In this document: piece by piece, positions 3,065 to 56,200 of the stretch
Numbering within the stretch: the stretch's first letter is position 1
Layout: the number at the start of each line of letters is the position of its first letter
Origin: Candidatus Chisholmbacteria bacterium RIFCSPHIGHO2_01_FULL_52_32
GTDB taxonomy: Bacteria; Patescibacteriota; Microgenomatia; UBA1400; Chisholmbacteraceae
Direction of reading: 5' to 3'
NCBI GenBank assembly: GCA_001816585.1
Contig: MHCJ01000003.1
Span: 156,228 to 220,227, forward strand
DNA length: 64,000 nt
Notes under the pieces: model-generated
Told to the model about the DNA's origin: nothing
The model's input: the letters and a program-made list of their open reading frames with translations, nothing else
Database searches by the model: none
Position numbers and translations under genes: made by a program

Positions 3065-3424
3065 ATGAGTTTTCGGTTTGAGGGTTTGGTGATTTGGAGT
3101 GGGTCGAACACTTTTGCTTCGAAGGTTTACAGATTTACCAAGTCCCTTCCTCGGAGTGAGCAATTCGGTCTGAGCGATCAGCTCAGACGAGCAGCGAATT
3201 CGATTCCGGTCAACATAGCCGAGGGCGCTGGAAGTGCGTCCAATAAAGATTTCGCCAATTTCTTAAACATTGCAATCCGTTCTATCTTTGAAGTAGTATC
3301 ATTGTTGTTTCGGTGCGAACAAGAAAGCTATCTTTCTCGCGCCCAGCGCGAACGGTTTTATCAAGAAGCGGAGCTCCTGGTGAAGCAAATCCAAGCCTTT
3401 CGAGCGAAACTCATTCAGCGCTAG
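3065..3424 (+). CDS. Four-helix-bundle protein (23S rRNA intervening-sequence protein / Avd-like family)
   Basis: 119 aa. The motif SDQLRRAANSIPVNIAEGAGSASNKDFANFLNIAIRSIFEV matches the TIGR02436/PF05635 four-helix-bundle signature. Confidence 0.7.
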   Translation: MSFRFEGLVIWSGSNTFASKVYRFTKSLPRSEQFGLSDQLRRAANSIPVNIAEGAGSASNKDFANFLNIAIRSIFEVVSLLFRCEQESYLSRAQRERFYQEAELLVKQIQAFRAKLIQR

Positions 3425-15009: not shown

Positions 15010-15084
15010 GATAGTTAAAAGTTACAATTCAAAGTTTAAAGTTCTGAGAACAATATTATTACTCATAGTTAACACTTTTATACC

Positions 15085-15843: not shown

Positions 15844-15884
15844 TTTCAGTATGGACGAAACTTTTTTGTCCAACCAACCTGTTT

Positions 15885-15916
15885 GACCATTTCTTTGTTT
15901 GTCCAAAGAAATGGTC
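15885..15916 (+). promoter_or_regulatory. Perfect 13-bp stem hairpin (gaccatttctttg / caaagaaatggtc) in the 320-bp cysS leader
   Basis: Read directly from the sequence. The core ttctttg...caaagaa is shared with the hairpin at 34174-34206. Confidence 0.5.
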
Positions 15917-16163
15917 GAAAGAAAGGACGCCCTTGAACGGTCTTTCGAGAACGCGTTTCACTCACATTGTACGATCAAACTCCTCTCCGCCAGCTGGCGG
16001 ATCGTCGAACCCCACATCATTCACTCGACTTGTCGAAGACTGCTTATCCAGCCGTTTCGGCACTCGGGTTCATGAGCGGGGCAGGCAGTGATCGCTTTTC
16101 AGAAGAGTTCGCTCAACTCGTTCTCGACTAGCTGCGTTCAAAGGGAGATAAAATAGAGGGACG

Positions 16164-21138: not shown

Positions 21139-21708
21139 ATGCTTGCGGAAGGTTTCACGGAGTTCGTTCGGCGGCATAAGAATATTGCGAGCCTTGTTGC
21201 GGTTTTGGCGGCGCTCGTTATCAGTTGGGGAATATTTGTTTACAGCGACCGACTGGCGTACCTCGCGCGGTATGGCTACATCGGTATCTTCTTTCTCTCG
21301 ATGCTCGGGAATGCAACGATCCTGTTGCCGATGCCGTCGATGGTTTCTGTCTATATTGCGGGCGGGTTGTTTAATCCAATTATCGTCGGCTTTATGGCGA
21401 GTGCCGGGGGCGCTATCGGAGAACTGACGGGGTACCTGGCCGGAGTCGGGGGACACCGGATCATTAAGGAGCGCAAGCTGTTTATCCTGATTGAAAAGTG
21501 GGTGCACCGGTATGGGGTGGTTGGGATTTTTCTGTTTGCCATGATTCCCAACCCTTTTTTTGATATGGTGGGACTCACGGCAGGGCTTATGCGCGTTCCG
21601 GTTTTTCAATTCCTGGTTGCGACCTGGCTAGGGCAGACGGTGAAGTTTCTTTTGATTTCGTATTTGGGGGCGGGATCAACCGGCTTGATGGAGCGATGGT
21701 TGCACTGA
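21139..21708 (+). CDS. DedA/YqaA-family (VTT/SNARE-associated domain) membrane protein
   Basis: 189 aa with about 4 TM helices. The segment YGYIGIFFLSMLGNATILLPMPS...GELTGYLAG fits the DedA core. Confidence 0.6.
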   Translation: MLAEGFTEFVRRHKNIASLVAVLAALVISWGIFVYSDRLAYLARYGYIGIFFLSMLGNATILLPMPSMVSVYIAGGLFNPIIVGFMASAGGAIGELTGYLAGVGGHRIIKERKLFILIEKWVHRYGVVGIFLFAMIPNPFFDMVGLTAGLMRVPVFQFLVATWLGQTVKFLLISYLGAGSTGLMERWLH

Positions 21709-21845
21709 ATTTATTGTACTTTCCTGTGAGCTTCGTTACAGTTTTGTGCACAGGATTTTGAGTAGTGTGAACCATTATCGTGTTGATGTGGGGAGCCACA
21801 GTTGGATAGGAAGGATCTCTCATACATTGACAATACTCGTTCGTA

Positions 21846-21920
21846 GGGGCACCAGTGAGATAGCATAAATGCATCTCACGGTGCCCTCGTGAGATGGCTG
21901 GAAGCCTATCTCACCGAGGG
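21846..21920 (+). promoter_or_regulatory. Tandem overlapping hairpins built from GTGAGAT/ATCTCAC palindromic units, with the 3' arm covering the RBS of the downstream lipoprotein gene
   Basis: gggcaccagtgagat...atctcacggtgccc and ccctcgtgagat...atctcaccgagggg share a strand. The 3' arm (ccgaggggagg) overlaps the GGAGG-like RBS 10 nt before the ATG at 21934. Confidence 0.5.
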
Positions 21921-21933
21921 GAGGTGAAACAGC

Positions 21934-22374
21934 ATGAAAAAGAGTCATCTTCTCGGCTTGGTTTTGGCAGGCTTCTTACTTGCCGGTTGTTTCCATACGG
22001 GCTTGAAGAACCAGACAGGGGTGACGACGACCCAACCGGTAGAACCATCGATAACGGGAACAGAGGCAACGGAGGCAACCGGAGAAGCAGTGCAGGTTGA
22101 AGAGGGCACGACGGTGCGTTATACCGACACGGGATTCGTACCTCAGAGTATTTCCGTGATTGTTGGGGACAGTGTTACCTTTGTCAATGAAAGCGGCAAG
22201 CAGATGTGGGTTGCCTCAGCGGTGCACCCGACGCACCAAGTCCTGCCCGGTTTTGACCAGTTGACGGCCGTGGGCATGGGAGAGTCCTATACCTACACCT
22301 TTGAAATGGCAGGGCAGTGGAAATACCATAACCATGTCTCTCCTGGTGACACCGGGGTTGTAGTTGTGGAATAA
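21934..22374 (+). CDS. Lipoprotein with a cupredoxin-like beta-sandwich domain (no Cys ligand)
   Basis: 146 aa with a lipobox signal peptide (LLAGCF), a Thr/Glu-rich linker, and a C-terminal His-rich beta region (HPTHQ, YHNHVSPGD). Confidence 0.55.
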   Translation: MKKSHLLGLVLAGFLLAGCFHTGLKNQTGVTTTQPVEPSITGTEATEATGEAVQVEEGTTVRYTDTGFVPQSISVIVGDSVTFVNESGKQMWVASAVHPTHQVLPGFDQLTAVGMGESYTYTFEMAGQWKYHNHVSPGDTGVVVVE

Positions 22375-31599: not shown

Positions 31600-31848
31600 A
31601 TGGAGCAGAGGGTGATTAAGATCGGGAATTCGGTTGGCGTTATTATTCCACAGCCATTAAGACGACAAATCAGGCTTCGTCCTGGGGAGAAGGTTATCGT
31701 TGAGGCAGATGTTGTCGCTAGGGAGATTGTCGTTCGCCGTAAGGGAACTATTTCCAAGCGTTCCTCTGTCACTCCCGAGTTTTACAAATGGCTTGAGAAA
31801 TTTAACCAGCGCTACGCAGGGGCACTTCGGGAACTTGCTGACCGTTAA
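31600..31848 (+). CDS. AbrB/MazE/SpoVT-family antitoxin
   Basis: 82 aa. VIKIGNSVGVIIPQPLRRQIRLRPGEKVIVE is a SpoVT/AbrB swapped-hairpin domain. The stop overlaps the Doc toxin start. Confidence 0.8.
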   Translation: MEQRVIKIGNSVGVIIPQPLRRQIRLRPGEKVIVEADVVAREIVVRRKGTISKRSSVTPEFYKWLEKFNQRYAGALRELADR

Positions 31849-32273
31849 TGGATCAGTCACCTCTCTTTCTTACGCTTGAACAAGTGCTGGCAATCCACGA
31901 TGACCAGATTGAGAGATACGGTGGAAGCCATGGTGTTCGAGACCTCTCTCTTCTGTTGTCCGCGATTGCCAGACCTCAAGCTACGTTTGGAGGCGAAGAT
32001 CTCTACCCTCATATTTTTCTCAAGGCGGCGGTTTTGATGCAAGGGATCATTCTCAATCACCCGTTTGTCGATGGGAATAAACGCACGGGTGTGGTGTCTG
32101 CCGCCAGATTTCTTTTTGTCAATGGATACCAATTTCATGCGAGCGGTGCGGCATTGATTCAAATGGCTCTCAAAGTCGAAGCGAAAACTATTTCTCCAGA
32201 AGAACTTGTCGGTTGGCTGCAGAAGAACTCGAGGAAGATGAGGAGGCGTTATTTGACGGTTAATCAAACCTAG
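31848..32273 (+). CDS. doc: Doc (death-on-curing) Fic-family toxin
   Basis: 141 aa with the Fic motif HPFVDGNKRTG. It sits immediately downstream of, and overlapping, the antitoxin. Confidence 0.9.
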   Translation: MDQSPLFLTLEQVLAIHDDQIERYGGSHGVRDLSLLLSAIARPQATFGGEDLYPHIFLKAAVLMQGIILNHPFVDGNKRTGVVSAARFLFVNGYQFHASGAALIQMALKVEAKTISPEELVGWLQKNSRKMRRRYLTVNQT

Positions 32274-33121: not shown

Positions 33122-34120
33122 ATGTCATTAAGTGTAGGAATTGTAGGGCTTCCGAATGCGGGGAAGAGTACTCTCTTTAATGCGCTCGCCGCACGGCGGC
33201 TGGCGGAGACTGCGGCCCGGCCGTTTACGACGATTGAGCCGCACGAGGCGGTTGTGCCGGTGCCCGACGAGCGCCTGCGCAGGCTTTCCGGGCTTGTGAA
33301 ACCCCAGGAGACCGTTCCCGCGACCGTGACGTTCATTGACATCGCAGGACTAGTCAAAGGGGCCCATCAGGGTGAGGGGTTGGGGAATCAATTCTTGGCA
33401 AAAATCCGGGAGGTGGATGCCCTTGTTCATGTCGTTCGGGCGTTTGTCGATCCGGGAGTTTCCCATACAGGCGCGACGCACGAGCCCGGGAGTGCGGAGC
33501 AAATAATCGAAGATATCGAGAATGTGAATATGGAGCTTGAGCTCGGAGGAATTGCAAAAAGGCCGACCATTTACGTTCTCAATATCGGCGAGCAGAATGT
33601 CGGAGCTTCGGAATCCCAGCGGCTCACCGAGCTTGTCGAGGGAAAGTTCGGCAATACGGCAATTGCTGTTTCGGCAAAGCTTGAGGAGGAGCTCATCGAT
33701 TTAGCGCCTGATGAAAGAAAGCAATATCTGGCCGAGGTTGGTGCTCAAGAGTCCGGTCTTATACAGATTATCAAAAGAGCGTATGAGCTGTTAAGCCTCG
33801 TCACGTTCTATACCATCAAAGGCGGAGTTGAGCTCCATGCGTGGAGCATCAAGCAGGGGGAGAGTGCTCTTCAGGCAGCGGCCAAGGTTCACAGCGACTT
33901 TGCCAAGGGGTTTATCAAGGCAGAGGTGATTGGAGTGGAGGAGCTTCTGGGATTCGGCGGACCCGCCTCGACTCGCGGAGAGGAGCCAGCTTCGCAGAAT
34001 CTAGGTGAGTCGACACAAGGCGGGTGGAAGGCGGCGAAGGAGCATGGGAAGGTGAGACTCGAGGGAAGGGATTATGCGGTTGCGGATGGAGATGTGATTG
34101 AGTTTAAGGTGGGTGGATAG
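33122..34120 (+). CDS. ychF: Ribosome-binding ATPase YchF (Obg family)
   Basis: 332 aa. The N-terminus SVGIVGLPNAGKSTLFNAL is the YchF G1 motif. The TGS-like C-terminus is GRDYAVADGDVIEFKV, and there is a ~30-aa Gly/Ser-rich insertion before the TGS domain. Confidence 0.9.
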   Translation: MSLSVGIVGLPNAGKSTLFNALAARRLAETAARPFTTIEPHEAVVPVPDERLRRLSGLVKPQETVPATVTFIDIAGLVKGAHQGEGLGNQFLAKIREVDALVHVVRAFVDPGVSHTGATHEPGSAEQIIEDIENVNMELELGGIAKRPTIYVLNIGEQNVGASESQRLTELVEGKFGNTAIAVSAKLEEELIDLAPDERKQYLAEVGAQESGLIQIIKRAYELLSLVTFYTIKGGVELHAWSIKQGESALQAAAKVHSDFAKGFIKAEVIGVEELLGFGGPASTRGEEPASQNLGESTQGGWKAAKEHGKVRLEGRDYAVADGDVIEFKVGG

Positions 34121-34173: not shown

Positions 34174-34206
34174 AGTTCCTTCTTTGCTCACCCAAAGAAG
34201 GAACTA
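34174..34206 (+). promoter_or_regulatory. Perfect 13-bp stem hairpin (agttccttctttg / caaagaaggaact) at the start of a 320-bp noncoding region
   Basis: Read directly from the sequence. No U-tract follows. It shares the ttctttg/caaagaa core with the hairpin at 15885-15916. Confidence 0.5.
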
Positions 34207-36005: not shown

Positions 36006-36145
36006 GAGGAGTGAGGGGGATAAGTTAAAAATTCAAAGTTAAAAGTTAAAAATTACAATTCAAAATTAAAAGTTTCTCTCCTAACTTGTAACTTTAAACT
36101 GCAACTTTGAACTTTACACTTTACACTTTAAACTTTTTACCCCTA
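36006..36145. repeat. Inverted heptamer-repeat block: (GTTNAAA)n followed by its reverse-complement (AACTTTN)n
   Basis: The forward part is gttaaaa attcaaa gttaaaa gttaaaa attacaa ttcaaaa ttaaaag. The reverse part is aacttgt aacttta aactgca actttga actttac actttac actttaa. The block could fold into a long imperfect hairpin. Confidence 0.85.
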
Positions 36146-36493: not shown

Positions 36494-37801
36494 ATGATTG
36501 TCCGACCAATTTCGCTGGTGAGAATCCGTTCGTTCTTCCTTGTACTTTCTTTGATTGTCCTTTCGGTTGGTACCGGCTTTTGGTATGGGCGGCGATCGAT
36601 CACGACAGACTTTTCAAAACTTCCGCCGAAAGTTGAAATCATCAATCGTGCCCAGCCCCCAGAGCACCGGACGGTTGATTTTTCCCTGTTTTGGCAGGTT
36701 TGGGATGAGCTTGCCGGTAGCTATATTACTCCTGACTCGCTTGATCCCGAGAAGATGGTTTTTGGGGCGATTTCAGGAATGACCTCCGCAATTGGGGATC
36801 CCTACACGGTTTTCTTGCCGCCCATGGAAAACAAACAGACAAAAGAGAATCTATCCGGGAAGTTTGGGGGAGTAGGAATTCAGCTCGGATTTAGGGATCG
36901 TGCACTCTCCGTTGTCGCCCCGCTCTCCGGAATGCCCGCGGAGCGGGCTGGGATAAAGGCGGGGGATTTTATTCTCCACATCAAGGATGAGGGCGCAGGT
37001 GTTGATAAGGATACCCAAGGTATGCCCCTGCCTGAGGCCGTGAACTTGATCCGGGGGAAGCTCGGGACAAAGGTTCTCTTGACTTTGATCCGCGAGGGAC
37101 AGACCAAACCGTTCGATGTCGAGCTTGTCCGCGAAGAGATTGTGATTCCGAGTATCGAACTCACGTGGTTACCTCCAGATGAGGCGGCTCGGAAACTGGT
37201 AACCAAAGAGACGGAAATCCCGGTCGGCGAAAAGGTTGTAGCCCATCTTGCGGTGGCGCAATTTGGTGACCAGACTGATGGGGAATGGGACCGCGCTGTT
37301 TCGGACATTCTCGACCGGGAAAGCGATGTTGTCGGGATCGTCCTTGATTTTCGAAATAATCCCGGCGGCTACTTGTCCGGAGCTATTCGTATGGCTTCTG
37401 AGTTCCTTTCGGAAGGAACTGTGGTGGTGCAACAGGGAAGGGTCCGCAGCGAGACCTTCCCGGTAGAGGAACCTGGTCGCTTGACCGATCTTCCGTTCGT
37501 CGTTCTTGTCAACGGCGGGAGTGCCTCCGCTTCCGAGATTGTGGCCGGAGCTCTGCGTGACCGACGTGGCGCAGTGCTGGTTGGGGAGAAGACGTTCGGA
37601 AAAGGAACGGTTCAGGAAGCGAGGGATTTGCCCGGAGGGGCAGGACTCCACGTGACGACGTCGAAATGGATTCTGCCCAGCGGTGAAGCAATTAACGCCA
37701 AGGGTTTGACCCCGAATATCGAGGTTACCCTGACGGAGGAGGAGAATGGCATTGATGAACAGCTTGAGAAGGCGATCGAAACCTTGCTGAAGCAACAGTA
37801 A
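36494..37801 (+). CDS. ctpA: Carboxyl-terminal processing protease (S41 family, CtpA/Prc-like) with PDZ domain
   Basis: 435 aa with an N-terminal TM anchor and a PDZ domain. The S41 catalytic region is GGYLSGAIRMASEFL...VLVNGGSASASEIVAGALRDRRGAVLVGEKTFGKGTVQ. Confidence 0.9.
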   Translation: MIVRPISLVRIRSFFLVLSLIVLSVGTGFWYGRRSITTDFSKLPPKVEIINRAQPPEHRTVDFSLFWQVWDELAGSYITPDSLDPEKMVFGAISGMTSAIGDPYTVFLPPMENKQTKENLSGKFGGVGIQLGFRDRALSVVAPLSGMPAERAGIKAGDFILHIKDEGAGVDKDTQGMPLPEAVNLIRGKLGTKVLLTLIREGQTKPFDVELVREEIVIPSIELTWLPPDEAARKLVTKETEIPVGEKVVAHLAVAQFGDQTDGEWDRAVSDILDRESDVVGIVLDFRNNPGGYLSGAIRMASEFLSEGTVVVQQGRVRSETFPVEEPGRLTDLPFVVLVNGGSASASEIVAGALRDRRGAVLVGEKTFGKGTVQEARDLPGGAGLHVTTSKWILPSGEAINAKGLTPNIEVTLTEEENGIDEQLEKAIETLLKQQ

Positions 37802-37839: not shown

Positions 37840-38997
37840 ATGAGACGGTTTTTCATCGGCTTGGCAAGCGGTGTCCTTCTTGTCGTCGTTCTGCTTTCGG
37901 GGGCGACGATGGATCGGTTGTGGGGAATCCCACTCCTTGATCGTCTTTTTTCCCGTCAGGTGGGGACAATCGGCGGGAAATCTACGCTTGAGCAGCGAAT
38001 TCTTACAGAGGAATCGGCCGTCATTGAGGTTGCGGAAAAAGTAAGCCCTTCCGTAGTCACCGTTTCGGTGGTTCGGCAAAGTGACAGTTTCGACCCGTTA
38101 TCGGATCCTTTCGGGTCGCTTCGGCTTCCGGGGCGGGGACAACCTGCGACCCAAGACCGGGATATCGGCTCGGGATTCATCATCGATGCCGATGGGCTTG
38201 TCGTTACCAATAAGCATGTTGTCGATGATCCTTCCGAGACGTATCGGGTCGCGACCAAAGATGATACGGTCTATGAAGTGAAGAAGATCTACCGGGATCC
38301 CACGAATGATCTGGCGATCTTAAAGATTGATCCGCCAGCCGGCGGACTGCGGCCGATTGAATTGGGAGACTCGGGTGCCCTCAAGGTCGGACAGTTCGTT
38401 ATTGCGATCGGAACAGCCCTGGGAGAATTTCGGCATACGGTGACAACTGGGGTCATCTCCGGCTTGGGAAGAGGGATTCAGGCAGGTGATCCTTTCAGCG
38501 TTACTGTTGAAGAGCTTGATAATGTGATTCAGACTGATGCGGCCATCAACCCTGGAAACTCGGGCGGACCGCTGTTAAACAGCGCCGGTCAGGTCATCGG
38601 CGTGAACGCTGCGATTGCCGGAGGTGCCGAGAATATAGGATTTGCCATCCCGATTAATGTGGTGAAGGCGTCGCTTGAGACGTTTAACGCGACCGGAAAG
38701 TTTTCGCGGGCATTCCTTGGGGTTCGCTATCAAATGATCCCGAAGGAGTCGGCGCTCCTCAACGAAGTGCCTCAGGGAGCATACGTCATCGACGTTGTTG
38801 AAGGCTCCCCGGCTGACGGGGCAGGGATTGAGCAGCAAGATATCATTACCGCGTTTGACGGACAGGATGTTAATACCGACGGAGGTTTGGCCGCGATCAT
38901 CGGGAAGAAAAAGGTCGGGGATAGGGTTAGTTTTCAGGTTTGGAGAGATGGCAAGACGCTTGATCTTTCGGTTGTGCTCGGGGAGGCAGGGGAGTAA
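37840..38997 (+). CDS. htrA: HtrA/DegP-family serine protease with C-terminal PDZ domain
   Basis: 385 aa with a signal/TM, the catalytic triad context (VVTNKHVV; DLAILKI; GNSGGPLL) and a PDZ domain at the C-terminus. Confidence 0.9.
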   Translation: MRRFFIGLASGVLLVVVLLSGATMDRLWGIPLLDRLFSRQVGTIGGKSTLEQRILTEESAVIEVAEKVSPSVVTVSVVRQSDSFDPLSDPFGSLRLPGRGQPATQDRDIGSGFIIDADGLVVTNKHVVDDPSETYRVATKDDTVYEVKKIYRDPTNDLAILKIDPPAGGLRPIELGDSGALKVGQFVIAIGTALGEFRHTVTTGVISGLGRGIQAGDPFSVTVEELDNVIQTDAAINPGNSGGPLLNSAGQVIGVNAAIAGGAENIGFAIPINVVKASLETFNATGKFSRAFLGVRYQMIPKESALLNEVPQGAYVIDVVEGSPADGAGIEQQDIITAFDGQDVNTDGGLAAIIGKKKVGDRVSFQVWRDGKTLDLSVVLGEAGE

Positions 38998-39061
38998 GCG
39001 AGCGGAGCTCGCTCAGTTAAAAGTTTAAAGTTCAAAATTTAAAGTTATCCCAGTGCCAGCT

Positions 39062-39088
39062 CCGTGAGAAAAGTGAACATCTCACCGG
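39062..39088. repeat. REP-like palindrome CCGTGAGA-N11-TCTCACCGG between convergent genes
   Basis: The same GTGAGA/TCTCAC dyad family occurs at 21846-21920 and flanking the tRNA-Leu. Here it lies between htrA (+) and the MFS gene (-) and could act as a bidirectional terminator. Confidence 0.5.
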
Positions 39089-39155: not shown

Positions 39156-40322
39156 TCATGAGATTTTGCGGGAAGTGTAAAAGAGCACAAATGCAGTAGC
39201 TGCCATGACGCTTCCGTACCAGAACGTGGCGGACGCGCCAAACTTCGTCCAGAGAACTCCGCCGATAAATGAGGCCAGAAATCCGGCAACGGCGGTTAAA
39301 GTCTGGTGCAGACCGAAGAAGGTTCCTGATTCTTCCTTTTTGATAAATTCCGAAATATAGGCTTTGGAGACACCGTCGGTTGCGGCTATGTAGAGCCCAT
39401 ACACCGGAAACAACAGCCAAAGCCAGTCGGATGTTTGAATTAAGCCGAACGCAGCGTAGACTACGGAAAACACCAGAAGACCTCCAGCGAAAACCTTTCT
39501 TGCCCCGATAGTATCGGCAAGGCTTCCCAATGGTGTTGCAAAGAGTGTTTGGGTGACGTTATAGAGCACGTAGACCAATACAACGAGTGTCGTGGTGAGC
39601 CCGAGCTCTTTTGCCCTAAGCAGCAGAAACACATCGGAGCTGTTGCCGATTGCGAAGAGAAAGCTCACCAAGAGAAACAGTTTGAGCCTTGGCGAAATTG
39701 ATCCCCATGATAGATTGACCAGCAGGTGAGTATCGCCGTTCCAGTCTCTCTTTTTCCTTTCGCGAACGAAGAGGAGGAGCAGGAGGACCCCGATAGATGA
39801 CGGGATAAATGCCAGAAAAAACATCAGACGCATGTTTTCCTTCAGGAGGTAGAGAAGAATTAGAGCCAGAAGCGGACCCAGGACCGCGCCGAGGCTGTCA
39901 AACGCCCGGTGAAAACCGAAGATGAAGCCTTTGTTTTCGGGAGTAGCGTTTTCGAGGAGCAAGCTGTCGCGGGCGGCCGTCCGCAACCCTTTACCAAGAC
40001 GATCGCTGAACCTGGCAACGAGAACTAAATGCCAGGAATAGGCAAGGCCGATCAGCATTTTCGAGATTGTCCCGAGGGAGTAGCCGGCAACCACAAACGG
40101 TTTTCGTTTTTTCAGATAATCAGAGATGTAGCCGAAGATGAACTTTGAGAGGCTTGCCGTTGCTTCGGCAATGCCCTCGATCAGTCCTACGATGGCAATC
40201 GGCGTGCCCAGGACTGTTGTCAGGAAAATCGGAACGATCGGATAGATCATTTCCGCGGCGATGTCGTTGAAGAAACTTACCAAGCCCAGGAGAAAGACAT
40301 TGCGCGGGATTTTTTTACTCAC
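39156..40322 (-). CDS. MFS transporter
   Basis: 388 aa with 12 predicted TM helices and the MFS motif region GRLSDRLGKG-like in loop 2-3 (FSDRLGKGLRTA). Confidence 0.85.
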   Translation of the reverse strand: MSKKIPRNVFLLGLVSFFNDIAAEMIYPIVPIFLTTVLGTPIAIVGLIEGIAEATASLSKFIFGYISDYLKKRKPFVVAGYSLGTISKMLIGLAYSWHLVLVARFSDRLGKGLRTAARDSLLLENATPENKGFIFGFHRAFDSLGAVLGPLLALILLYLLKENMRLMFFLAFIPSSIGVLLLLLFVRERKKRDWNGDTHLLVNLSWGSISPRLKLFLLVSFLFAIGNSSDVFLLLRAKELGLTTTLVVLVYVLYNVTQTLFATPLGSLADTIGARKVFAGGLLVFSVVYAAFGLIQTSDWLWLLFPVYGLYIAATDGVSKAYISEFIKKEESGTFFGLHQTLTAVAGFLASFIGGVLWTKFGASATFWYGSVMAATAFVLFYTSRKIS

Positions 40323-46692: not shown

Positions 46693-47355
46693 ATGGACAT
46701 TACGTACCTTGGGCACAGCTGTTTTAAGCTTCGCGGGAGAGAAGCGAGCTTAGTCACCGATCCCTATGCGTCTTCGGTTGGCTTTGCCATGCCGCGCGTC
46801 TCTGCTGACATCGTAACGGTATCTCATTTCCATAAGGATCACTGCTACACCTCGGGCGTGTCCGGCACCGCGCGCCGAACAGAACCGTTTTTGATTCAAG
46901 CTCCCGGAGAATATGAAATCTCCGGCATCTCTGTGTTCGGCGTGTCCTGCTTCCATGACGGGAAAAGTGGGACAGAAAGAGGGAAGAATACCGTTTTTAC
47001 CATTCATGTAGATGACGTTTCGATTGTTCATCTCGGGGATCTGGGGCATCGGCTTTCCGACCAAGAGATAGAGGCGATGGGGAGCTGTGATATCCTGCTT
47101 GTTCCGGTCGGAGGCGTTTATTCCCTTGACCCGAAGGAGGCGATCGAGGTCGTAAACCAGCTTCAACCTGCTGTGGTTATTCCCATGCATTACCGAACAC
47201 CGAAGCATAATCCAAAAGTTTTCGGCAAATTGGCAACCCTTGAAGATTTCCTTCATGAAGGCGGATTTGAGCAGGCAGCGCGAACGGAAAAGTTGACGCT
47301 CGCAAAGGGGAGTCTACCCAGTGAAATGGAAGTGGTGGTGCTAGAGAAAAGTTAA
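46693..47355 (+). CDS. MBL-fold metallo-hydrolase (UPF0173-like)
   Basis: 220 aa with the metal-binding motif VSHFHKDH and downstream HLGD and PMHY motifs. Confidence 0.85.
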   Translation: MDITYLGHSCFKLRGREASLVTDPYASSVGFAMPRVSADIVTVSHFHKDHCYTSGVSGTARRTEPFLIQAPGEYEISGISVFGVSCFHDGKSGTERGKNTVFTIHVDDVSIVHLGDLGHRLSDQEIEAMGSCDILLVPVGGVYSLDPKEAIEVVNQLQPAVVIPMHYRTPKHNPKVFGKLATLEDFLHEGGFEQAARTEKLTLAKGSLPSEMEVVVLEKS

Positions 47356-47440
47356 AAGTGAAAAGTGAAAAGTGAAAAGTTAAAGAGAGAGGAAGAAGCA
47401 CAGGGTGGCGGAGACGGAAGAGTTAAAAGTTTAAAGTTCC
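47352..47440. repeat. Heptamer repeat block (GTTNAAA/GTGAAAA family)
   Basis: Direct reading gives gttaaaa gtgaaaa gtgaaaa gtgaaaa gttaaag ... gttaaaa gtttaaa gtt. Confidence 0.85.
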
Positions 47441-47603
47441 TCCTTCGCTTCAGCCGGCGCTGAAGCTACGGCGGACAGGGAAAAGTTAATATTTTCAAAC
47501 AAAGTCAACAAAAGAAAACACTTTAAGTCTCGAAATTCCAAGGAAACGTGAAATCGAAGCTTTGGAATTTTTGTTGCTTCAAGCCTTTGAAACTTTGAAA
47601 TTT

Positions 47604-48920
47604 ATGGCTGAAGGTCGCATTCCCCCCCATAGTGATGATGTTGAGCGGTCAGTATTGGGCGCATTCCTTATTGATCGAGAAGCGATCATTGAGGTTGCGG
47701 AATTTTTACGGCCTGAACATTTCTACGATGAGTCGCACCGGCGGATTTACCGTTCGGCGCTCGATCTCTACGAATCCGGTAAGCCGATCGACCTGGTTAC
47801 CATATCAGAGCGACTTCGGCAGCAGAAAAATCTTGCCAAAATCGGCGGGTCCTCCTATTTGGCACAACTTGCGGCTGCGGTTCCGACAGCCTCGAATGTG
47901 GAGCAGTACGGGCAGATCGTACGAGATCTAGCAACGAAGCGTGAGCTCATTAACGTTGCCGGTAAACTCGCTGAGTACGCTTTTGATGAAGCACGGCATG
48001 CGACAGAGGCACTCGATTTGGCGGAGCAGCAGATATTCTCGCTCTCCCAGAGGCATATGCAGCGGGTATTTATTCCCATCCGGGATGCTTTGGCGGAGAG
48101 TTTTGATCGACTTGATGAGTTGCACAAGACCGCCGGAGGTCTTCGGGGAGTGTCTACGGGTTTTGCCGACCTGGACGATACGCTCGCCGGAATGCAGAAC
48201 TCGAACCTCCTGATTCTTGCCGGCCGACCGGGATTGGGAAAAACCGCCATGGCGCTCAATATTGCTCAGTTCGTTGCGGTTACCTCGAAGATGCCGGTTG
48301 GGTTTTTTTCCTTGGAGATGAGCCGTGAGGAGTTGGTTGATCGGCTTCTCGTGTCGCAAGCAGATATTGATGCATGGAGGCTCAAGACGGGCAAGCTTAC
48401 CCCGGAGGATTTCGAGCGTCTCTCGAACGCGATGGGAATGTTGGCGGAGGCGCCGCTTTACATCGACGATACGCCGGCCTTGTCTGTTCTTGAGATGCGG
48501 ACCAAGGCCCGCAGGCTTATGGCAGAGGAGGGATTGCGGCTATTGGTGATTGATTATCTTCAGCTTGCTGTCGGAAGGCATTTGGAAAACCGCGTCCAGG
48601 AAGTAACGGAGATCAGCCAGGGCTTGAAAAATTTGGCGCGTGAGTTGAAGTTGCCTATTTTAGCTTTGTCTCAATTGTCGAGGGCAGTGGAACACCGAGG
48701 TTCAAGTCAACCGCAACTGGCGGATCTTCGGGAATCGGGCGCGATTGAGCAAGATGCGGATGTTGTCATGTTCCTTTACCGACAGGATGAAGAGGATCGG
48801 GAAAATCTCAAGCTTTGGGTTGCCAAGCACAGAAACGGGCCCTTACGGACAATTGACCTTCGATTCCGAGGGGACCGGATCCGGTTCTTTGGGACGGAGA
48901 AGAAGAGGGGAGAGAAGTAG
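47604..48920 (+). CDS. dnaB: Replicative DNA helicase DnaB
   Basis: Start chosen at MAEGRIPPHSDDVERSVLGAFLID. Walker A is GRPGLGKTA, with the DnaB H2-H4 motifs (SLEMS; IDYLQL; the SQLSR arginine finger region). Confidence 0.95.
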   Translation: MAEGRIPPHSDDVERSVLGAFLIDREAIIEVAEFLRPEHFYDESHRRIYRSALDLYESGKPIDLVTISERLRQQKNLAKIGGSSYLAQLAAAVPTASNVEQYGQIVRDLATKRELINVAGKLAEYAFDEARHATEALDLAEQQIFSLSQRHMQRVFIPIRDALAESFDRLDELHKTAGGLRGVSTGFADLDDTLAGMQNSNLLILAGRPGLGKTAMALNIAQFVAVTSKMPVGFFSLEMSREELVDRLLVSQADIDAWRLKTGKLTPEDFERLSNAMGMLAEAPLYIDDTPALSVLEMRTKARRLMAEEGLRLLVIDYLQLAVGRHLENRVQEVTEISQGLKNLARELKLPILALSQLSRAVEHRGSSQPQLADLRESGAIEQDADVVMFLYRQDEEDRENLKLWVAKHRNGPLRTIDLRFRGDRIRFFGTEKKRGEK

Positions 48921-49075
48921 TAAAGGGATTTTAGCCCACGGTGGTGCCGAGGGAGGGAGTCCCTCCTTCGCAATACTGCCTTCTCAAGACTGCTATCTAG
49001 CCGTTTTCGAAGCCGTTTGCTTTGGCGGGCAGGCGAACCCACATGAGGTGTGAACCTCACCCCGTGAGATATCTG

Positions 49076-49159
49076 TGGCCAAGGAGAGAGTCGAACTCTC
49101 ATGAGGTTACCCTCACACGATTTTGAGTCGTGCGCGTCTGCCAGTTCCGCCACTTGGCC
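49076..49159 (-). tRNA. tRNA-Leu (anticodon CAA), class II with a long variable arm
   Basis: Minus-strand read: GGCCAAG-TG-GCGG-AACTGGCAG-ACGC-G-CACGA-CTCAAAA-TCGTG-TGAGGGTAACCTCATGA-GAGAG-TTCGACT-CTCTC-CTTGGCC-A. It has a 7-bp acceptor stem, a GAGAG/CTCTC T-stem with a TTCGACT loop, and anticodon loop CUCAAAA. CCA is not encoded. Confidence 0.8.
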
Positions 49160-49315
49160 GTTATCTCACGGGGCGCGTCTGCCCGCCTCGCGTCAACTCG
49201 TCTCCGCGAGTCGAGGCGGGCCAATTCCGCCACCTCGGCCTGGTTATCTATTGGCAATTGGCAAACTGTCTTTCTTCTGGTATTTTACCAAAATATTTTT
49301 TATAATTCTTTCCTT

Positions 49316-49876
49316 ATGATTTCAGTGACTAAACTGCGCGTCGGCGTGACCTTTGAACACCTGGGGGATCCCTGGAGGGTGATCGAATATAAGCATGTCC
49401 ATCTCTCCCGGGGGTCGGGGACGATCACGGTTCGGGCGCGGAACCTTCGTACGGGCAATGTTCAGACTCTCGCATTCCGATCTGGCGATCGGGTGGAGGA
49501 TATTTCGGTCGAGCGACGTTTGCTTACTTATCTCTACAAAGATGGGGACTGGTTGGTATTTATGCATCCTAGGAACTTTGAGCAATCCATGGTTCCCTTA
49601 CACGGGGTCGGAGAAGGGATCCGATTCGTGGTGGAAGGGCAGGAGGCATGGGTGCTGTTTTGGGAAGAAAAGCCGCTGGATGTTGAAATTCCCCCTAAAG
49701 TGACTCTTGAGGTCGCGGAGGCCAGTCCCGGCGTTCGGGGTGATACCGTCGCAGGGGCAACAAAGGATGTCGTCCTCATTACGGGCATGCATCTTCGGGT
49801 TCCATTATTCATTCATAAGGGAGACCGTGTGGTTGTGGATACGAGGACCGGGAAGTACGTAGAAAGAGCAAGTTAA
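49316..49876 (+). CDS. efp: Elongation factor P
   Basis: 186 aa, start at MISVTKLRVG. The three OB/KOW-like domains align with EF-P (..TYLYKDGDWLVFMHPRNFEQ.., GDTVAGATK, VDTRTGKYVERAS). The loop residue that aligns with E. coli K34 is Arg, in HLSRGSG. Confidence 0.85.
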   Translation: MISVTKLRVGVTFEHLGDPWRVIEYKHVHLSRGSGTITVRARNLRTGNVQTLAFRSGDRVEDISVERRLLTYLYKDGDWLVFMHPRNFEQSMVPLHGVGEGIRFVVEGQEAWVLFWEEKPLDVEIPPKVTLEVAEASPGVRGDTVAGATKDVVLITGMHLRVPLFIHKGDRVVVDTRTGKYVERAS

Positions 49877-49990
49877 AAGTTAAAAGTGAAAAGTTATAAA
49901 TTACAATTTAAAATTTAATATTTCTCTGTCAACTTGGAACTTTAAACTGCAACTTTGAATTTTGCACTTTAAACTTTAAATTTATTGACC
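49862..49990. repeat. Inverted heptamer-repeat block: (GTTNAAA)n then reverse-complement units, then GACCCTG repeats
   Basis: The forward part is gttaaaa gttaaaa gtgaaaa gttataa attacaa tttaaaa. The reverse part is aacttgg aacttta aactgca actttga attttgc actttaa actttaa. It has the same architecture as 36006-36145. Confidence 0.85.
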
Positions 49991-56147: not shown

Positions 56148-56200
56148 AGCAAGTTAAAAGTTCAAAGTTAAAAGTTTAAAGTTACAACTCAAAATTCAAG
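56148..56200. repeat. Heptamer repeat block (GTTNAAA family)
   Basis: Direct reading gives gttaaaa gttcaaa gttaaaa gtttaaa gttacaa ctcaaaa ttcaagg. Confidence 0.85.

Follow-up and report, generated by a model that had tools for sequence, protein, structure and literature searches.

A probable tRNA-Leu relic enclosing an intact tRNA-Leu(CAA) gene, and a small palindrome family, in Candidatus Chisholmbacteria

The window analysed here is a 64-kb stretch of contig MHCJ01000003.1 from a Candidatus Chisholmbacteria bacterium, a member of the Microgenomates within the candidate phyla radiation (CPR). In this window, an intact tRNA-Leu(CAA) gene is clamped by a perfect 12-bp helix, composed of the 5-bp anticodon stem (CCCCG/CGGGG) of a broken ancestral tRNA-Leu(CAA) and seven further base pairs (TGAGATA/TATCTCA). 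The helix is also one of four GTGAGAT/ATCTCAC dyads, which are copies of a short, lineage-specific palindromic unit located in intergenic spacers. The overall best explanation, to which we assign a probability of roughly 0.55, is a small palindrome family together with a nested tRNA relic at a hot spot of tRNA-Leu replacement. The analysis covered the window and 10 kb on each side (84 kb of the same genome), approximately 700 kb of related Microgenomates DNA scanned for the dyad, and 23 distinct Microgenomates tRNA-Leu(CAA) loci; L-numbers (such as L004, L014 and L049) label the strain and relative contigs compared with the window. The nearest species representative is another Chisholmbacteria metagenome-assembled genome, with a DnaB identity of 78%.

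The nest is encoded on the minus strand between dnaB (47562-48920, plus strand) and efp (49316-49876, plus strand). Its parts, with sequences in RNA sense, are listed in the order in which they are read.
49282-49290, minus strand: extended −10-like element TGGTAAAAT, a putative promoter 5′ of the outer half, recognized from its sequence.
49221-49239, minus strand: outer piece 5a, comprising the acceptor 5′ strand GCCGAGG, TG and the start of the D arm, GCGGAATTGG.
49182-49220, minus strand: D-loop insert, a 39-nt palindrome of a second family (family B), CCCGCCTCGACTCGCGGAGA...GGCGGG; missing from a second strain allele (allele 2).
49169-49181, minus strand: outer piece 5b, CAGACGC G CCCCG, comprising the end of the D arm, position 26 and the anticodon-stem 5′ strand.
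49162-49173, minus strand: 5′ arm of the clamp, CCCCGTGAGATA, comprising the outer anticodon-stem 5′ strand CCCCG and TGAGATA.
49076-49159, minus strand: inner, intact tRNA-Leu(CAA), with acceptor GGCCAAG/CTTGGCC (Rfam tRNA, 54.7 bits).
49060-49071, minus strand: 3′ arm of the clamp, TATCTCACGGGG, comprising TATCTCA and the outer anticodon-stem 3′ strand CGGGG.
49034-49064, minus strand: outer piece 3a, comprising CGGGG, the variable arm TGAGGTTCACACCTCAT, and the T-stem 5′ strand with the first half of the T loop, GTGGGTTCG.
48961-49033, minus strand: T-loop insert of 73 nt, homologous to an insert in L014; L037 has a 1.2-kb insert at this place.
48942-48960, minus strand: outer piece 3b, ACT CCCTC CCTCGGC A CCA, comprising the end of the T loop, the T-stem 3′ strand, the acceptor 3′ strand, the discriminator A and CCA.

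Read along the minus strand from 49239 to 48942, the order is piece 5a, the 39-nt palindrome, piece 5b, TGAGATA AC, the inner tRNA, CAGA TATCTCA, piece 3a, the 73-nt insert and piece 3b. The outer acceptor 3′ strand CCTCGGC is complementary to GCCGAGG at all seven positions. Once stripped of its three inserts and given a placeholder loop, the outer sequence is folded by ARAGORN into a tRNA-Leu, a complete class II tRNA that is 78-79% identical to the tRNA-Leu(CAA) of relatives. A tRNA-Leu profile search of the whole window returned outer pieces as three of its five best non-self matches, all collinear and on the same strand. Moreover, the outer acceptor GCCGAGG/CCTCGGC is that of the intact gene occupying the dnaB-tRNA-efp position in L015, L016 and L041. 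The acceptor match and the reconstructed class II fold together identify the clamp as the lengthened outer anticodon stem, the old anticodon loop having been replaced by approximately 106 nt that carry a complete, different tRNA-Leu(CAA) gene. Since the outer gene is interrupted three times (in the anticodon, D and T loops), it is read as a relic.

The arms of the clamp lie 4 nt and 2 nt beyond the ends of the inner tRNA, and the duplex of leader and trailer, which the clamp dominates, has a folding energy of −35.7 kcal/mol (z-score of −5.3). The perfect 12-bp pair had been noticed in a first-pass annotation of the window, which placed the second arm one position away from 49162-49173 and 3 nt, rather than 2 nt, from the tRNA. 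Rfam searches gave the inner tRNA as their sole real match, both when the window and the loci of four relatives were scanned at the gathering threshold and when 48880-49320 was scanned at E<=10. ARAGORN, with introns of up to 300 nt allowed, called the inner tRNA and left the outer gene uncalled. RNAalifold of the window, L014, L016 and L037 gave just five weak pairs 3′ of the tRNA, and no conserved structured RNA there. A role of the clamp as a conserved feature of tRNA-Leu precursors was rejected, as the leader/trailer duplex is significant in the window alone.

A homologue of the −10-like element, TGCTAAAATACCA, is located directly upstream of the tRNA in L014, which suggests that the whole unit forms one transcript. 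The conserved −10 element, which precedes the outer 5′ half, would probably drive transcription of the whole 320-nt unit. In the transcript, the clamp would probably isolate the inner tRNA as a folding domain of its own, apart from outer halves that are 78% similar to it. RNase P and a 3′ nuclease would then probably release the inner tRNA, leaving the outer pieces as by-products.

The locus is polymorphic between strains. Contigs L010-L012, which come from other samples and represent co-occurring strains, match the window at 99.8% identity over a stretch that runs from 49220 past 51100, and they diverge exactly at the outer D loop. Their allele 2 (L010:1-95, L011:1-75 and L012:1-75; the counterpart of window 49220 and below) retains the outer 5′ half minus four bases, lost in small deletions. 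It has neither the 39-nt D-loop palindrome nor the clamp, GTGAGATA being replaced by TATAT. Its inner gene is a different tRNA-Leu(CAA), with the acceptor strand GCCGCGG and the T arm GTCGG/CCGAC. Contigs that encode the exact DnaB or the adjoining lactamase-fold protein all carry allele 1, as in the window, or end inside the inner tRNA. The allele 2 contigs cover the efp side, and contigs end inside the inner tRNA from both directions, which is consistent with population heterogeneity at that point. The differences between the alleles indicate that decay of the outer gene has taken separate courses in strains that are nearly identical. The inner gene, like the clamp and the D-loop palindrome, is of recent origin, and all three are dispensable in sequence.

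Similar arrangements recur in Microgenomates. About half of the 23 loci carry tRNA-Leu fragments beside the intact gene (L014, L016, L018, L019, L030, L037, L044, L047, L049 and L056). Both outer halves are present in L019 (11779-12003) and L049, with the paired acceptors GCCGCGG/CCGCGGC and GGCCGGG/CCCGGCC, respectively. The fragments of L056, L018 and L030 are 5′ halves whose ends fall at the anticodon loop or close to it, and 3′ parts are found in L014, L016, L037, L044 and L047. In L049, the flanking 5′ and 3′ fragments match the intact L044 gene without a difference over the corresponding parts, and that gene is itself followed by a 3′ end of the L049 inner type, such that inner and outer types are reciprocal. 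L047 and L049 agree in their promoter, in their inner tRNA and, as far as GGGTTCGA in the T loop, in the outer 3′ half; beyond that point they are unrelated. L049, unlike L047, has a 112-nt block that carries the outer 5′ half. The 1.2-kb insert at the T-loop position of L037 carries a nucleotidyltransferase gene. This gene (L037:2984-4084, minus strand; 366 aa, NTP_transf_2) is bounded on one side by a tRNA-Leu together with its one 3′ remnant and on the other by an older such remnant, GGAGGGATTCCCGCCCTCGGCA. The locus is probably a hypervariable hot spot of repeated tRNA-Leu gene replacement. No description of bacterial nested or split tRNA genes of this kind was found in the searchable open-access literature.

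The remaining dyads are hairpins in two other spacers. The first-pass annotation reported the dyad at three places in the window, and all three were recovered, for a total of four dyads.
21846-21887, plus strand: hairpin 1, GGGGCACCaGTGAGAT-11 nt-ATCTCACGGTGCCCT, made up of GGGGCACC-a-GTGAGAT / ATCTCAC-GGTGCCCT, with a GCA/TGC mini-stem in the loop (−28.4 kcal/mol, z-score of −7.7).
21884-21920, plus strand: hairpin 2, CCCTCGTGAGAT-12 nt-ATCTCACcGAGGG, made up of CCCTC-GTGAGAT / ATCTCAC-c-GAGGG, with a GGCT/AGCC mini-stem in the loop (−24.5 kcal/mol, z-score of −5.2).
39062-39088: site 2, CC-GTGAGAa-8 nt-aTCTCAC-c-GG, with a left arm matching at 6/7 positions.
Hairpins 1 and 2 form site 1, between a VTT/DedA-type gene (21139-21708, plus strand) and a cupredoxin-like lipoprotein gene (21934-22374, plus strand). 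Site 2 separates the convergent htrA-like (37840-38997, plus strand) and MFS (39156-40322, minus strand) genes, and the clamp is site 3. The single copy noted earlier at site 2 is present as a weak hairpin (−9.5 to −10.5 kcal/mol, z-score of about −1.5), and no polymorphism between strains was seen there.

All eight arms are preceded by a C-rich extension (G-rich on the partner arm), and these extensions pair with each other and differ in sequence, giving the approximate consensus CYCS-GTGAGAT-loop-ATCTCAC-SGRG. The core common to the copies is only 7-10 nt long, and the outer stems and loops are unrelated. The pattern GTGAGA-N0-30-TCTCAC occurs three times in the window, compared with 0.06 expected, and at least three occurrences were obtained in 0/100 shuffles. 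With up to one mismatch and a gap of up to 120 nt, five pairs are found against approximately one expected. Thus, with a heptamer that is by itself not enriched (10 against 7.5 expected), the set is beyond chance yet small, and its core alone is conserved. No further copies were detected in the 20 kb of added genome sequence or in the approximately 700 kb of related DNA. The copies probably arose by duplication or insertion inside this lineage, and the hairpins at 21.9 kb and 39 kb would probably act, at most, as generic RNA stem-loops for transcript-end protection or termination. The hairpin family is a minor lineage-specific repeat of little consequence. An origin of sites 1 and 2 as tRNA-Leu fragments, suggested by the word CCGTGAGA at the junction of the variable arm and T stem in some relatives' tRNA-Leu, was rejected: the profile search of the hairpins was empty, and alignment to the tRNA locus beyond the core gave p values of 0.06-0.13.

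Several points weigh against the combined explanation of a palindrome family and a nested relic. The genome exceeds 1.16 Mb, of which the copy count covers 84 kb, and with a short common core and a weak site 2, some of the resemblance between dyads could be due to chance. Co-transcription, processing and any stabilising role are inferred. Perfectly paired outer acceptors persist in distant lineages (the window, L019 and L049), and the window, L019 and L056 each have a D-loop hairpin inserted at one and the same position. Because of these last two features, a functional outer RNA and an active cassette are kept as minority readings below.

It is unlikely that the dyads merely reflect chance and local duplication, such that a local duplication, tandem or inverted, gave rise to hairpins 1 and 2, and the heptamer of sites 2 and 3 is a coincidence. 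The lack of heptamer enrichment and the weak, imperfect site 2 favour this, as do further 7-mers that recur in hairpin stems of the window, such as TTCTTTG and AGTTCCT. However, with site 1 given, the expected number of extra dyads is approximately 0.06 for gaps of up to 30 nt and 0.02 for gaps of 31-120 nt, and one of each was observed; the joint chance of sites 2 and 3, with the motif fixed by site 1, is roughly estimated at 1e-3. The similarity also extends to CCGTGAGAT(A), CCGTGAGAT being common to the three sites. Side observations on such recurrent words are that AGTTCCTTCTTTG/CAAAGAAGGAACT and TTCTTTG/CAAAGAA are repeated in stems at 34174-34205, 15882-15919 and 37401-37420. Terminator-like hairpins with a recurring stem word follow the ychF gene and a PIG-L gene, and the third copy (37401-37420) is inside an S41-peptidase open reading frame (ORF) at 36494-37801.

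We also consider it improbable that the hairpins form a selfish family, either of miniature inverted-repeat transposable element type or of repetitive extragenic palindromic (REP)/RAYT type, mobilized by a transposase from another part of the genome. REPs are conserved along approximately 35 nt, have a 5′ GTAG-type head, occur in tens to hundreds of copies per genome and flank a RAYT gene. As in the REPs and REPINs of enterobacteria and pseudomonads, the copies here are short, imperfect intergenic palindromes (hairpins of 27-42 nt in spacers), sometimes in tandem, and stable RNA stem-loops of this type can protect mRNA ends. Their dispersal as imperfect palindromes of 35-42 nt favours mobility. 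So does a 68-bp segment (21824-21891) that includes hairpin 1 and is missing from strain contig L004, where the flanks are 100% identical. The family-B palindrome, present in the outer D loop of allele 1 and not of allele 2, and lying in frame in ychF, is clearly insertional. Unlike REPs, however, the dyads share a 7-10-nt core rather than their full length, number four in 84 kb, are missing from relatives and have no GTAG-type head at their ends, the arms starting with variable C-rich stems. No target-site duplication was detected, and the ends of the 68-bp indel do not match the hairpin boundaries. Neither the RAYT/IS200-like gene that the first-pass annotation had proposed to look for nor any Y1_Tnp, DDE or other transposase was found among the Pfam matches of the ORFs checked (at least approximately 130 aa) in the 84 kb, where a few ORFs in 42.9-46.8 kb were without annotation or unscanned. 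The suggestion of a REP-like family therefore holds as far as a non-random set of related stem-loops, one site of which is indel-polymorphic, and fails for REPs as defined, given the short core, the lack of extra copies in the sequence scanned and the lack of a RAYT gene or transposase among the ORFs checked in the 84 kb.

The second copy of family B is located within a coding sequence.
33959-34027, plus strand: family-B palindrome, in frame inside a ychF-like gene (33122-34120).
Only two copies of this family (33959-34027 and 49182-49220) were seen, and the 20-nt head CCCGCCTCGACTCGCGGAGA is common to both. The ychF insert adds approximately 15-21 residues compared with Escherichia coli YchF (PDB entry 8kie_y) and splits the Pfam match to the C-terminal domain. 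It shows no strain polymorphism, being present in all strain contigs seen. Rickettsia palindromic elements are reportedly 100-150 bp long, numerous and located inside functional genes. Family B resembles them in its position inside genes, in frame in ychF and in the outer tRNA D loop, and differs from them in element length (39-66 nt) and in the two copies seen. A MazE-like/Fic pair is located 5′ of ychF, at window 31600-32273.

For the nest, a joint reading holds that Microgenomates have tRNA-Leu(CAA) replacement cassettes or, alternatively, that the outer halves are a two-piece, anticodonless tRNA-like RNA with its own function. Its cassettes would insert into the resident anticodon loop, killing the gene and taking over its function, and might be addictive; their ends here would be the GTGAGATA/TATCTCAC inverted repeat, with the other hairpins as solo copies. 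We regard this as quite unlikely, although the persistent acceptors and D-loop hairpins are such that the outer RNA could have a function instead of being a relic.

A narrower version, in which a mobile cassette GTGAGATA-tRNA-Leu-TATCTCAC homes into the anticodon loop of a resident tRNA-Leu and the short hairpins are its empty copies or footprints, is very doubtful. It would account for the exact placement of the 7-bp inverted repeat, with the outer anticodon stem on one side and the inner tRNA on the other, for the different inner tRNAs of strains that are 99.8% identical, for the reciprocal types of L044 and L049, and for the reappearance of the 8-nt arms GTGAGATA and TATCTCAC in hairpins 1 and 2. 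Against it, a clamp of this sequence is present at no other locus, and the other nested loci have a weak clamp or none. Neither a target duplication nor a candidate enzyme was found, the profile search detected no tRNA remnants in the hairpin loops, and the inner tRNA was not found in viral contigs. A phage-borne cassette was rejected on this last ground, the inner tRNA having no exact match there.

The nest was also compared with known ways of breaking tRNA genes. Integrases are said to use anticodon-loop and T-loop sublocations of tRNA genes. Displaced tRNA-gene fragments are the usual scars at genomic-island integration sites (Islander, PMC4383910). In the window, as in relatives, partial copies (49239-49169 and 49064-48942) are adjacent to an intact tRNA, the breaks are in the anticodon and T loops, and different DNA is attached in each genome, all of which resembles such scars. 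In known islands, however, a matching fragment restores the split gene, and the distal end of a kilobase-sized, integrase-bearing island is where the displaced fragment lies. Here, both old halves flank a complete, non-matching tRNA within 320 nt, the insert is 106 nt long, and there is no island and no adjacent integrase, the closest tyrosine recombinase gene being approximately 10 kb away. A complete, non-matching tRNA between both halves, without an island, argues that the nest is not the product of the integrase mechanism.

Archaea and algae have intron-containing, split and permuted tRNA genes (PMC4033280, PMC3978253). The nest is similar to these interrupted genes in its break in the anticodon loop, its further breaks in the D and T loops, and the helix that flanks the insert. 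In contrast to archaeal and algal tRNA introns, the host is bacterial, the insert is itself a complete tRNA, and no bulge-helix-bulge is present, the junction having loops of 2 nt and 5 nt beside the perfect 12-bp helix. No group I or other intron was matched in Rfam at E<=10 on 48880-49320, and a loop of 6 nt lacking U33 would result if the outer pieces were joined. A spliced, decoding tRNA is unlikely, given such a loop and the absence of a bulge-helix-bulge and a group I core. Readings of the nest as a Y RNA-like RNA, a tmRNA or a bulge-helix-bulge intron were rejected, given the absence of a G3:U70 pair, of an Rfam or ARAGORN tmRNA call and of the motif itself. Bacterial rRNA intervening sequences are extended stem-loops that replace a native loop and are excised without religation. 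The nest shares with them an extended stem-loop in place of a structural-RNA loop, but they reside in functional rRNA, whereas the host RNA here is apparently a relic. As a separate observation, an NCBI record annotates a gene for a 23S rRNA intervening-sequence protein (PF05635) at window ~3065-3424 (L071:12977-13336).

The leader of the lipoprotein gene was the subject of the remaining proposals of the first-pass annotation, namely that the tandem hairpins are mutually exclusive, that the last arm covers a GGAGG ribosome-binding site, and that they act as a translational attenuator, or else that the palindrome is the operator of one regulator.
21920-21927, plus strand: Shine-Dalgarno sequence GGAGGTGA, 6 nt 5′ of the ATG at 21934.
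The four alternating arms do permit 1:2, 2:3 and 3:4 pairing, and the end of hairpin 2 is at the Shine-Dalgarno sequence. Both hairpins exist as described, with an overlap limited to CCC at 21884-21886, but they coexist in the minimum free energy structure of 21835-21945 (−47.7 kcal/mol). The competing 2:3 hairpin reaches −14.3 kcal/mol, which leaves hairpins 1 and 2 together with an advantage of more than 30 kcal/mol. Within GGAGGTGA, pairing with hairpin 2 is limited to the first base, G21920; the remainder of the Shine-Dalgarno sequence and the AUG are unpaired. No leader ORF with its own Shine-Dalgarno sequence is present upstream of the gene. In 21500-22100, a sigma-70 promoter scan returned no match, and the sole hairpin-plus-T-run match of a terminator scan was the 2:3 hairpin, on the minus strand.

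In the closest orthologues fetched (L033 and L034; protein identity of 64-68%), the leader lacks the hairpins, is preceded by other genes and is alignable in the Shine-Dalgarno region only. In that region (L033:3195-3215 and L034:785-800) the sequence is GGGGGTGAGATGGAATG or GGGAGGTGAGATGGAATG, and GTGAGATGG already stands beside the start codon. As GTGAGATGG is also found in the 5′ arm of hairpin 2, this hairpin may have grown by inverted duplication of the Shine-Dalgarno region. Of the two hairpins, the 68 bp missing from L004 include the first and the 5′ arm of the second, along with a TTGACA hexamer. Beyond window 23008, L004 (1964-3231) continues in unrelated DNA with the start of a permease-like ORF, skipping a 141-aa gene and a DUF4153 gene; this junction is either a real rearrangement or a chimeric assembly.

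A free Shine-Dalgarno sequence, dominant hairpins 1 and 2, hairpin-free leaders and a natural strain deleted for 68 bp of the region do not fit a conserved translational switch, and arm spacings of 8, 11, 12 and 92 nt, incompatible with a single dimeric DNA-binding protein, together with extensions that pair and differ and a motif missing from the relatives, point to stem-loops rather than a regulator's DNA site; both proposals are accordingly highly improbable.

A further repeat in the window is the AAAGTTN heptad, which occurs in tandem (AAAGTTNAAA) 18 times, compared with 1.1 expected, and mostly just 3′ of stop codons. Examples are located at 36035-36136, 39020-39036, 47348-47435, 49876-49977, 56157-56180 and 15031-15040, and a similar motif is upstream of the tRNA in L043. 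The heptad may be a 3′-end or terminator-associated signal of the lineage.

The nest is of note because a broken tRNA gene holds, in its anticodon arm, an intact one of the same identity, with alleles that differ between near-identical strains, and nests or half-tRNA scars of a similar kind occur across Microgenomates. If this is general, turnover of essential tRNA genes in these tiny genomes would proceed through insertion and replacement instead of point mutation, and tRNA annotation in the CPR would overlook such relics. These loci would also offer a natural system for studying how a pre-tRNA folds and is processed amid near-copies of itself.

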